NCBI GenBank assembly: GCA_010405405.1
Contig: MU004236.1
Location: forward strand, 1-64,000
Reading direction: 5' to 3'
Origin: Microthyrium microscopicum
Lineage: Eukaryota
DNA: 64,000 nucleotides
Made by a program: the position numbers and the translations under genes
Shown: positions 61,891-64,000 of the stretch, in pieces
Layout of the letters: every line of letters starts with the position of its first letter
Position numbering within the stretch: the first letter of the stretch is position 1
The notes under the pieces: generated by a model
The model's database searches: none
What the model was told of the DNA's origin: nothing
The model's input: the letters and a program-made list of their open reading frames with translations, nothing else

Positions 61891-62245
61891 AGGTTGATGG
61901 ATGACAGACGACAACGTCCTCGGACCGTTGCGGTAACTACAGGTACCAGGAACCGGGATCCGACTCCGTCTCAGCATTGGCTTGCCTTTGCAATGAATTT
62001 CGACGTGTCACAAATTCAATCATGACATAAAACCTGTTGTAAATTTCAGCTGCCTACATTGAATCCTTCAAAATATACAATCAAGCCCACCTCAACCCAA
62101 AAAATTCCGTCAAGCCATCCTTCGGGGCACCAAACCCATCACCACCGAAATCCAGCCTTGTCTTCAGCCTTATCCGTCCACTAGCTCAATCAAAAGACAT
62201 CCCAAGCGATATTGATAGTCCACGCTACATACAGCCTCCAACGTG

Positions 62246-62840
62246 ATGGCATCTGCATCAGGAAGCTCAATGATCCCCACCAGACCATCCGCCTCAACCC
62301 CCGCCGCCATCACCCATCCCAAAATCCGCACCTTCGAAGAAGAGCAACAGCTCGACGAAGCAACTCGCATCCTAGAAGGCCAAACAAACCTCATCCACCA
62401 TGCCACAGACATGAACCAAGTATGTACACTCCTGCCTCTCTCCTTTCCCCTCATCCCTCCCTATCACACCACGGACTAACACCTCCTAGTCCCTGCCCCA
62501 AACAAAAGCCTACTTCACCCGTCTAGCCCACAGCATCACCCAAGCCCCCGAACCAGACTGGCCCATGATAAACAACCGCACGACCACCGGCTCACCTTTA
62601 GCTGGCACGATCGCGACTCCTTTGCGCCGATATACCGGCAAGACAGCTTCGTCTCCTGCTCCACCGACATCTGCGCCACTGAGTCCGCGAAAGCATGTGC
62701 TGGTTGAGGAAGCGAGTACTGGACGGAGGCGGGCACCGCCACTGGATGATGTGGAGATGGGCGAGAGTGGTGGGAAGGATACGGGGAAGGCGAGGAAGAA
62801 GAGAAGGAGTGGGGCATTGGAGAGTGGGAGACGGCATTAG
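62246..62840 (+). CDS. Hypothetical protein with basic C-terminus (possible NLS); 1 intron
   Basis: Intron 62420-62489 (gtatgt..ctaac..tag) joins ORFs 62243 and 62565 in frame; C-terminal ARKKRR. Confidence 0.75.
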
Positions 62841-63230
62841 AGTAGCTGTGTGATGGGAAAGGGTATGAAGTTATGGAGGATTGAGCTATGGATGATGGTC
62901 AGATGGTTCTGGACTTGGTGTATAGACTTTAGACAACGATTTGCAGGGAGCAAAGACATAGAAGGCGCGTTTGAGTGTTTACATTCATGAATTATATCAT
63001 GAGGCATACCGAAGAATGCCAAAACAATATCTCCCAAGGGCCAAGGCCTATTCAGAGCCAATATGCATCTCCAACTCTTCAATAATAATGTAGTCCATCT
63101 TCATAATGACAGGCTTTAAACCGGCTTCATTCCCATTTTCTGCGTTTCATGACGTCTTCATATGTACATGTTAATATCTTTGCATAATCCACATCCAATA
63201 ATCCACATCCATCTGATAAAATGCTTCCCA

Positions 63231-63488
63231 TCAAATGCCTTCATCCATGCCCACATTTCTCCACCAAGCGCCTTTAGTTTCATCATCAGCCCCCAACAAC
63301 TCTTCCGCATCACCAACTTGTCTTCGTTCGCTGATTTCGGGGAATGGCTGTGATTTGAGCCGCATGGTTTTGGCGGCAAGGAAGGATGCGGTGGAGCGGT
63401 TGGAGAGGGAAGAAGGAGAGCGGCTTGCAGTCGTCAATCCTTGCGGCGTCTTTCGGGCCTTCAAGGCGCCGCTCATGACTGGTAATTG
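63231..63488 (-). other. Candidate stop-codon readthrough extension of PDK (85 codons in frame)
   Basis: CAA TAA CAA TTA context, downstream stem-loop, open frame QLPVMSGALKARK...WWRNVGMDEGI*. Confidence 0.6.
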
Positions 63489-64000
63489 TTATTGTAGAGG
63501 CTCTGAGGATGAGGAAAGTCTGTTGAGGTGTAGGTAGACGTCTGTTCCGTAGCTATATTGCTGTTAGTTAGACTGTCTAGGTTGGTACGATGGTTCGGCA
63601 ACTTACCCTTCCATGCTGATAAGCTTCAAATCACCTCCAAAGTACCGTGCGTATAGCCTCGATATGGGAAGTCCATAACCGAATCCTGCCATAGGTGCCT
63701 TAAAGTCCGACTTGTTGAAATCGGGGTCCAGGTTCGGAGTTTGATCCACGGTAGTATACATGTACGTCCAAACCAAAGGTATCGCAGATCTGGCAATTCC
63801 ACCTCCTTCATCCGATATTTTGATAGTGATGTCCTCTTTTCCCTCTGCCACAATGACCTTGGTGACTGGAAACTCGTCCTTGTCTTGTCCATGAGTTTCC
63901 ACCACAGCACGTAAGCTGTTTTTGAGAGTTTCGAATAGCATGTGCGATAAATGTCCAGGAACATACATAAAATTGATTTCCGGATTGCAAACAAGTTGAA
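63489..64000 (-). CDS. Mitochondrial pyruvate dehydrogenase kinase (PDK/BCKDK family), 3' part; continues beyond the window
   Basis: GHKL motifs FETLKNSLRA, ISDEGGGI, YMYTT, PMAGFGYGLPISRLYARYFGGDL. Intron 63553-63606; last exon YGTDVYLHLNRLSSSSEPLQ*. Confidence 0.95.

Follow-up and report, generated by a model that had tools for sequence, protein, structure and literature searches.

Probable programmed readthrough of the stop codon of the pyruvate dehydrogenase kinase gene in Microthyrium microscopicum and other filamentous ascomycetes

Readthrough in the tobacco mosaic virus (TMV) replicase gene takes place at the sequence UAG CAA UUA, and a related consensus, CARNBA, is known from yeast; the primary papers on the viral signal and on the yeast consensus are reportedly those of Skuzeski 1991 and Namy 2001. 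According to the available parts of PMC4132726, CARYYA drives the readthrough in TMV, the similar CARNBA stimulates readthrough in yeast, and all six bases matter; the same parts give a readthrough of about 15% for CARYYA in mammalian cells, with UGA about equal to UAG and UAA much less efficient. We have analyzed a stop codon followed by the same hexanucleotide in the gene for the mitochondrial pyruvate dehydrogenase kinase (PDK) of the fungus Microthyrium microscopicum. The gene lies at the end of a 64,000-nucleotide stretch of DNA (positions 1 to 64,000 of contig MU004236.1, NCBI GenBank assembly GCA_010405405.1), which is referred to here as the window. The PDK site resembles the viral and yeast signals in the hexanucleotide after the stop and in having no downstream RNA structure. 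Unlike the signal of the plant virus, it belongs to a fungal nuclear gene, is found with all three stop codons, and shows nucleotide conservation to about position +21. Sequence comparison indicates that the arrangement probably represents programmed readthrough of the TMV type, directed by a linear context and conserved in the Pezizomycotina (filamentous ascomycetes).

Readthrough is also said to expose peroxisomal signals at the context UGA CUA, in PGK and GAPDH of Ustilago and in MDH1 and LDHB, in work reportedly by Freitag 2012 and Stiebler 2014. The systems in which a type 1 peroxisomal targeting signal (PTS1) is exposed are like the PDK locus, as interpreted here, in that programmed readthrough of a metabolic enzyme gene, conserved in fungi, gives a C-terminally extended isoform. 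They differ from it in their context, which is UGA-CUA(G) as opposed to CAR-NBA, in the length of the extension, which is about 10-20 codons as opposed to 60-141, and in its end, which is a PTS1 tripeptide as opposed to EG-(I/V/L/M). Neither the context UGA-CUA nor a C-terminal PTS1 tripeptide was found in the PDK extensions, which end in EG-(I/V/L/M) or GGEV; the initial annotation of the window had described its extension as free of PTS1, and this holds for the relatives as well. The UGA_CUAG context and MDH1 are mentioned in the available parts of PMC4132726.

Two other kinds of system bear comparison. The available text of PMC13123824 describes stop-loss RNA editing of DBF2 and other genes in Fusarium graminearum, where a kinase, like PDK, has a conserved and largely disordered extension past the annotated stop. 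That editing acts on UAG with a hairpin, is specific to the sexual stage, is conserved in Sordariomycetes and adds a generic destabilising tail (PMC13123824, same text), whereas PDK has stops other than UAG in 35 of 64 sequence versions, no conserved hairpin and strongly conserved tail motifs. The available parts of PMC3777964 report a further recoding event, in PaYIP3 of Podospora, by which a single gene yields both a long and a short form; it is conserved in filamentous ascomycetes, and is a programmed frameshift in an unrelated gene, not readthrough. At the protein level, mammalian PDK1-4 have a C-terminal tail at the same position as the fungal extension, and the fungal stop lies just before the LPV(Y/F/M)xxxxW segment with which the mammalian tail opens.

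The PDK gene is on the minus strand and continues beyond position 64000, where the window ends. The features of its 3' end are the following, in window positions.

63607-64000, minus strand: partial PDK exon with the ATP-binding kinase domain, ending ...GGDLKLISMEG (Pfam HATPase_c, E 3.8e-9); the exon end is set by a joint in the RNA contig.
63553-63606, minus strand: last PDK intron, 54 nt, GT..AG, skipped in the RNA contig of run X1.
63492-63552, minus strand: last coding stretch of the annotated PDK frame, (G)YGTDVYLHLNRLSSSSEPLQ; the ratio of the proportions of nonsynonymous and synonymous differences (pN/pS) in the last 21 codons is 0.068.
63489-63491, minus strand: TAA, the proposed leaky stop; a stop is kept in 78/78 sequences, and the codon is unchanged in the RNA contig.
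63483-63494, minus strand: core context CAA-TAA-CAA-TTA, positions -3 to +9 (CAA 63492-63494, TAA 63489-63491, CAA 63486-63488, TTA 63483-63485).
63471-63482, minus strand: extended conserved stretch CCA GTC ATG AGC, positions +10 to +21; third-position information is high to about +21.
63234-63488, minus strand: proposed readthrough extension (the tail) of 85 sense codons, with QLPVM..., a variable Ser/Arg-rich linker and then conserved blocks.
63474-63476, minus strand: in-frame ATG, the fifth codon of the extension, at which translation might start independently; Met in 55/64 versions.
63300-63338, minus strand: most conserved tail block, EISERRQVGDAEE; E, R, Q, V and D are invariant in 52 tails.
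63234-63266, minus strand: C-terminal motif WWRNVGMDEGI, directly before the second stop and conserved in aligned tails.
63231-63233, minus strand: TGA that ends the extension; the tail ends at the homologous position in relatives.

The upstream exon (63607-64000) matches HATPase_c, PF02518, and is 96% identical to annotated fungal PDKs; across many fungal classes the kinase fragment shows 95-96% identity. Full-length PDK relatives carry PF10436, the N-terminal four-helix domain of the PDK/BCKDK family, together with PF02518, the GHKL ATP-binding domain; the window fragment shows the latter, and the N-terminal domain falls outside the window. The initial annotation had described a PDK frame that ends in CAA TAA CAA TTA on the minus strand and then stays open for 85 codons to the TGA at 63231-63233, and the sequence confirms both points. 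The extension starts QLPVMSGALK and encodes QLPVMSGALKARK...SERRQVGDAEE...WWRNVGMDEGI. Given a stop codon share of 0.0429 in the window, the chance of 85 open codons after a stop is P ~0.024; in the 28 other long frames in the window, no stop is followed by an open run of that length or more, or by CARNBA. A single genome is insufficient to separate the PDK tail from chance, whereas the comparative data set of related sequences is sufficient for this.

A scan of metagenome contigs with the tail alignment yielded 80 loci, and most of the relatives considered here are metagenome contigs. The end of the last PDK exon is contained in 77 of the 80 loci, which with the window make 78 sequences and 64 distinct nucleotide versions; the remaining three loci start at or past the exon end and have no sense codon at the stop position. 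Frame and substitution statistics were calculated from 60 complete distinct versions, and a tree of 60 versions was computed from alignments that omitted the stop together with the next six bases. The relatives are phylogenetically related, so Fisher tests on codon bias overstate the independence of the sequences and counts of changes on the tree are safer.

A stop follows EPLQ directly in all 78 sequences with the exon end, the window included, and a sense codon is found in none. The identity of the stop is variable: among the 64 distinct versions it is TAG in 29, TGA in 26 and TAA in nine, and it switched at least five times on the tree. Past this codon, 62 of 64 versions can be read in the PDK frame as far as the conserved motifs without meeting another stop; the length of the tail ranges from 60 to 141 codons, with many insertions and deletions. 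In the 60 versions the tail frame holds 0 stops, versus 316 and 274 in the other two frames. The pooled pN/pS of the tail is 0.50 and the median pairwise ratio of the corresponding rates (dN/dS) is 0.32, as against 0.99 and 1.14 on shifted codon grids; taken separately, the 68 well-filled columns give a pN/pS of 0.41 and the variable linker one of 0.91. Because synonymous sites of the tail are saturated (pS ~0.7), the actual constraint is stronger than such values suggest. Over the last 45 nt of the tail the sequences share a mean pairwise identity of 0.617, and over the 45 nt that follow its stop one of 0.276. On these comparisons the stop, its context, the frame and a coding-type constraint are conserved; the orthologue alignment that the initial annotation had suggested as a check thus retains the stop, a context of the CAR-YYA type, the open frame and the coding pattern.

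The conserved blocks of the tail are QxPVMRDxW, QGLT, AMxLK, E(V/I)SERRQVGD and, at the C-terminus, WWRNVGM(D/E)EG-x. In the block at 63300-63338, S, E and G are nearly invariant among the 52 tails. The window tail is on a long branch and is at most 65% identical to any related locus. One clade, comprising L074-L080 and the Pseudogymnoascus protein model P0280, ends in GFF(R/K)GEGGEV instead of WWRNVGMDEG and has a tail of 60-90 codons, so the latter end is not universal; the clade retains the stop, the context (CAA TCA/CCA GCA) and the SER(K/R)QVGD block. The 81 tail residues that begin with the in-frame ATG have 49 homologues among short predicted open reading frames (ORFs). A profile of 34 tail homologues matched 176 clusters at 50% identity among 1.84 billion representatives, and the best 150 of these clusters all have 30-180 residues, with no full-length kinase among them.

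The nucleotides around the stop are conserved beyond what the encoded residues call for. CARNBA follows the stop in 62 of 64 versions and CARYYA in 35; the CAATTA of the window fits both and is identical to the TMV signal. The initial annotation had identified CAA-stop-CAR-YYA with the TMV signal and with a context leaky in yeast, and the motifs in the available parts of PMC4132726 agree. The codon before the stop is CAA in 52 versions and CAG in 11, and the +1 codon is CAA in 62 and CAG in two of the 64. More variation is seen in the +2 codon (CGA 27, TTA 21, CTA 5, TCA 5, CCA 4, TTG 1, CAA 1), which changed at least 10 times on the tree while NBA was kept in all but one of the 60 versions, the exception being TTG. 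The base at +9 is A in 62 of 63 versions although the encoded residue varies between L, R, S and P, and the third position of the Val codon (+15) is C, that is GTC, in 59 of 63. Positions -1, +6, +9 and +15, which are synonymous or at non-conserved residues, are nearly fixed and other third positions are free; the strong constraint on third positions extends from -1 to about +21, with only 0.1-0.4 bits further upstream of the stop. Correspondingly, pS is 0.45 for tail residues 3-9 versus 0.70 elsewhere. In five full PDK ORFs the baseline for Gln is CAA 41 : CAG 63, with A in 16.7% of third positions, and codon choice near the stop deviates from this usage of the PDK gene itself. RNAalifold predicted 0 conserved pairs in 35 diverse sequences from -30 to +62, and the readthrough signal therefore appears linear.

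The stop and the +2 codon co-vary: TGA is mostly followed by CAA-CGA, TAG by CAA-TTA/CTA, and TAA by CAA-TCA/CCA/CGA/TTA. This pattern hints that the optimal downstream context may differ by stop codon.

Annotated proteins were surveyed with a full-length PDK query, and the best 120 of 5461 matches at E 1e-20 or better were examined. Among these, 99 end in EPLQ and two in EPLH/EPLS, 11 are truncated or end otherwise, and eight contain the tail. The eight gene models (P0050, P0202, P0210, P0233, P0247, P0251, P0280 and P0301) each join the kinase to the tail at a different point, MEG|F, MEG|D, MEG|E, GTD|Q, LSSS|E, HLN|H, EPL|H and EPLQ|P, and most of these junctions remove invariant kinase residues. 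The tail-reaching introns look like inventions of gene finders that bridge the stop because the tail scores as coding, and so like a recurrent annotation artefact. A search for the tail in longer proteins gave only one fused protein, the Pyrenochaeta model P0050, in which the intron deletes the last exon. Six classes of Pezizomycotina are represented among the named species whose proteins end at EPLQ: Dothideomycetes, Eurotiomycetes, Sordariomycetes, Lecanoromycetes, Leotiomycetes and Xylonomycetes, with the lineage checked for seven of the names. In named species the tail is seen via the mis-modelled proteins only, in Curvularia, Paraphoma, Stagonosporopsis, Pyrenochaeta, Pseudovirgaria, Aureobasidium (two models) and Pseudogymnoascus; of those with checked lineages, Curvularia and Aureobasidium are Dothideomycetes and Pseudogymnoascus belongs to Leotiomycetes. 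Pseudogymnoascus has the variant tail, with the end GFF..GGEV, that is found in L074-L080.

Transcript data for the window come from one public run, labelled 'RNA?' and available as assembled contigs, from which a single 3830-nt contig was aligned to 62300-64000; such contigs show neither transcript ends nor minority variants. This contig skips the PDK intron 63553-63606 and a plus-strand GT..AG intron at 62420-62489, and as it lacks these introns it derives from spliced RNA. It keeps the TAA, has no other joint and shows no base difference from the genome. Among the related contigs, 14 of 77 are without the last PDK intron. Four of them (L024, L040, L043 and L054) are 98-100% identical to the intron-containing contigs L025, L044 and L050 except for the missing introns, which identifies them as spliced transcripts from three species. 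TAG is retained in each of these four, whose sequences remain collinear through the tail and continue for 166-278 nt past its stop. We also considered a cryptic intron that would begin at GTCTAC in the last exon and end at a CAG past the stop, and rejected it because its removal would eliminate invariant residues and no transcript contig shows it spliced.

The relation of the fungal tail to mammalian PDK was analyzed with the read-through translation of the intron-less locus L042 (533 aa, TAG translated as Q, stop at residue 446), which matches human PDK3 with E 8e-81 in phmmer. The phmmer alignments to human PDK2 and PDK3 cross the stop and reach 15 residues beyond it. The fungal ...LSSSSEPLQ-stop-QLPVMRDGW pairs with the human ...LS(S/T)xSx---ERLPV(Y/F)NKSAW, with LPV and W conserved. 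The alignment across the fungal stop places it where the C-terminal tail begins, within a region that mammals encode without interruption. In the mammalian kinases this tail contains the DW motif, mediates contacts between subunits and with L2, and is required for full activity. Beyond the first ~15 residues no similarity between the fungal and mammalian tails was detected, and no mammalian counterpart of SERRQVGD or WWRNVGMDEG was detected. The C-terminus of the fungal tail, ...M-(D/E)-E-G-x-COOH, presumably bears a loose resemblance to the acidic EEVD-type peptides that are bound by tetratricopeptide repeat (TPR) domains. Binding of PDKs to the L2 lipoyl domain of E2 is covered in the available parts of PMC4813202, where the C-terminal DW-motif appears in a cited title.

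Structure prediction gave little for the tail. Folded alone it reached a predicted local distance difference test score (pLDDT) of 59 and a predicted template modelling score (pTM) of 0.17; it has no match to a Pfam family, and a search of the ESM Atlas with the tail returned no usable match. The AlphaFold2 model of the read-through protein was poor (mean pLDDT 63), with residues 388-506, including part of the kinase core, below 50, and the predicted complex of the kinase core (445 aa) and the tail (87 aa) scored 0.01. With no confident fold and no Pfam family, the tail is, as modelled, not a stand-alone protein.

The initial annotation had proposed an extended PDK isoform made by readthrough, and the retained stop, CARNBA in 62 of 64 versions, the open tail in 62 of 64 and pN/pS of 0.41-0.50 all support this. 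In the mechanism that we favour, most ribosomes would end at the TAA at 63489-63491 and yield the annotated kinase ...SSSEPLQ. In a fraction of ribosomes the stop would be decoded by a near-cognate tRNA, and 85 further codons would be translated. The resulting long isoform would carry a largely disordered tail with the motifs QxPVMRDxW, E(V/I)SERRQVGD and WWRNVGM(D/E)EG-x. The stop may have been retained because both products are needed, and it would fix the ratio of short to long subunits. The tail would act like the C-terminal tail of mammalian PDK by taking part in kinase dimer contacts, in contacts with the E2 lipoyl domain, or in both, and the readthrough share would then set the amount of kinase able to dock on the pyruvate dehydrogenase (PDH) complex. 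By analogy with the mammalian kinases, readthrough may affect PDH-complex regulation via the E2 lipoyl domain.

Going further, a contiguous ancestral PDK tail may have been split by a leaky stop in the ancestor of much of the Pezizomycotina, with translational fidelity at that codon setting the tail-bearing, docking or activatable share of the kinase; we offer this as a speculation that we judge rather unlikely. If it were true, the terminated form would be a tail-less subunit, weakly docking or dominant-negative, and the read-through form would be fully competent. The efficiency of readthrough, which might vary with release-factor activity, tRNA supply, carbon source or stress, would directly regulate how much pyruvate enters the tricarboxylic acid cycle, and published C-terminal tagging and annotation of fungal PDK would have covered one of two isoforms.

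Some observations weigh against readthrough at this stop and against the role assigned to the tail. The window allele has TAA, the stop expected to be least leaky; the initial annotation had itself called UAA usually the least leaky stop, in line with the mammalian values for CARYYA in the available parts of PMC4132726, where UAA is far less efficient than UGA or UAG. The tails of two versions, L037 and L046, contain another in-frame TAA within their variable portion and have degenerate C-terminal motifs (WWKHVRMEEAM and WWKNGGMEEGM), although their close relatives L016 and L020 have intact tails; lineage-specific decay of the tail, double readthrough, or an assembly or contig error may account for this. 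The initial annotation had named as refuting outcomes orthologues without the CARYYA context or with early stops or frameshifts; these outcomes did not occur, apart from the second stop in these two versions. It had also pointed to polyadenylation before 63231. The spliced transcripts of relatives pass the tail stop; in the window the PDK poly(A) site is not fixed by the RNA contig, because two convergent transcripts, that of PDK and that of a plus-strand gene ending near 62840, are merged in it. The tail profile searched against PDB sequences found no PDK, and its only match was a nickel-binding protein at the chance level of E 0.2; on sequence grounds, the proposed functional likeness to the mammalian tail rests on position and ~15 residues. 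We infer translation of the tail by readthrough from its conservation.

Four rival explanations were considered, of which the least improbable, though still improbable, is that the tail is a separate small protein, made by termination-reinitiation or internal initiation at the ATG 12 nt past the stop or from a transcript of its own. Met is the fifth codon past the stop in 55 of 64 versions, and in 54 of 63 no ATG precedes the one at offset 12; both counts speak for a separate start, and a fixed 12-nt spacer would keep the two frames aligned without it. On the other hand, Met5 is replaced in nine of 64 versions (T in five, L in two, R and N in one each), with at least seven changes on the tree, and where it is missing the next in-frame ATG lies beyond conserved residues. 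The Pro and Val between the stop and the ATG are conserved as residues, the synonymous variation of Pro (A38/C22/G3 at +12) fits translation, and this stretch aligns with the LPV of human PDKs. The N-terminal half of the window tail is basic, Ser/Thr-rich and acid-free and could resemble a presequence, but in most relatives the tail would start MRDEW, with acidic residues, which is unlike one. A stop context that is a known readthrough consensus also argues against separate initiation, as does the lack of an autonomous fold (pLDDT 59, pTM 0.17) against a separate protein. Viral reinitiation of the termination upstream ribosome-binding site (TURBS) type combines a restart AUG near the stop with an upstream 18S-complementary motif, the core of which is TGGGA; the core was found within 63 nt upstream in 0 of 63 versions, which is a weak test. 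Less probable again is A-to-I stop-loss editing, in which UAG becomes UIG and is read as UGG, as in the sexual stage of Fusarium and Neurospora. The editable TAG is present in 29 of 64 versions, in which editing could add to readthrough, and the available text of PMC13123824 gives 403 stop-loss edited genes with conserved edited extensions in F. graminearum. The stop is TGA or TAA in the other 35 versions and TAA in the window; according to the same text of PMC13123824, a change from TAG to TAA gives an editing-blocked allele, since edited UAA stays a stop. As editing needs UAG and is blocked by TAA, it cannot be the conserved mechanism. The 0 predicted pairs around the stop in 35 sequences also speak against it, and transcript contigs show the unedited stop, though such contigs drop minority variants. 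PDK terms had 0 matches in four supplementary files of PMC13123824, which may list gene identifiers only.

The two remaining explanations have very little probability. An alternative splice that removes the stop and joins the kinase to the tail is suggested by the eight tail-bearing gene models among the best 120 PDK homologues, with P0050 as the only fused protein in the search of longer proteins. These models, however, use eight different junctions, most of them deleting invariant kinase residues, and the window has no AG at the position of the P0050 junction. The residues directly past the stop are conserved, and over the last exon and the tail the window RNA contig and the spliced contigs of three other species follow the genome without a break. 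At a similarly low level we place the idea that the open frame is an untranslated relic of an ancestral tail after a nonsense mutation, or a conserved non-coding element of the 3' untranslated region. Mammalian PDKs run on through the stop position, so that an ancestral nonsense mutation is a plausible origin; the second tail stop of L037 and L046 and the near-neutral linker (pN/pS 0.91) would fit such a history. A relic, though, would gather stops and frameshifts, yet the 60 versions have 0 stops in frame versus 316 and 274 in the other frames despite the insertions and deletions. Codon-periodic substitution, with pN/pS of 0.41 in the conserved columns, and conservation that ends exactly at the second stop also argue against a relic, and the arrangement spans lineages with saturated synonymous sites (pS ~0.7).

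Programmed readthrough of the PDK stop would belong to a type of mechanism already described; what is new, as far as we have seen, is the gene concerned, how deeply the arrangement is conserved, and that an ancestral tail is split by the stop. In a literature search, with subscription journals mostly outside its scope, neither readthrough nor an extended isoform was found described for fungal PDK; PMC6540932, in which the terms co-occur, was rejected as a source because the co-occurrence is irrelevant. Verified chromosomal readthrough genes are few, and the described filamentous-fungal cases mainly concern peroxisomal signals or RNA editing. The PDK gene would be a deeply conserved cellular case with the classical TMV/yeast hexanucleotide and all three stops, in a central metabolic regulator, and would provide a natural series for the co-evolution of context and stop identity. 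A systematic annotation error is indicated as well, since 99 of the best 120 PDK proteins are without the extension and eight have invented introns, and the reading of experiments on fungal PDK may be affected. The available text of PMC6027865 reports an A. nidulans study of three kinases with green fluorescent protein (GFP) fusions (PkpA::GFP and others); the terms 'stop codon', 'readthrough' and 'C-terminal' have 0 occurrences in that text.

The convergent gene downstream of PDK lies at 62243-62840 on the plus strand, encodes a Ser/Pro/Arg-rich protein of ~175-183 aa and ends ~390 nt from the PDK tail stop. Its intron at 62420-62489 is confirmed by the RNA contig, and its transcript and that of PDK overlap enough to have been assembled into one contig.

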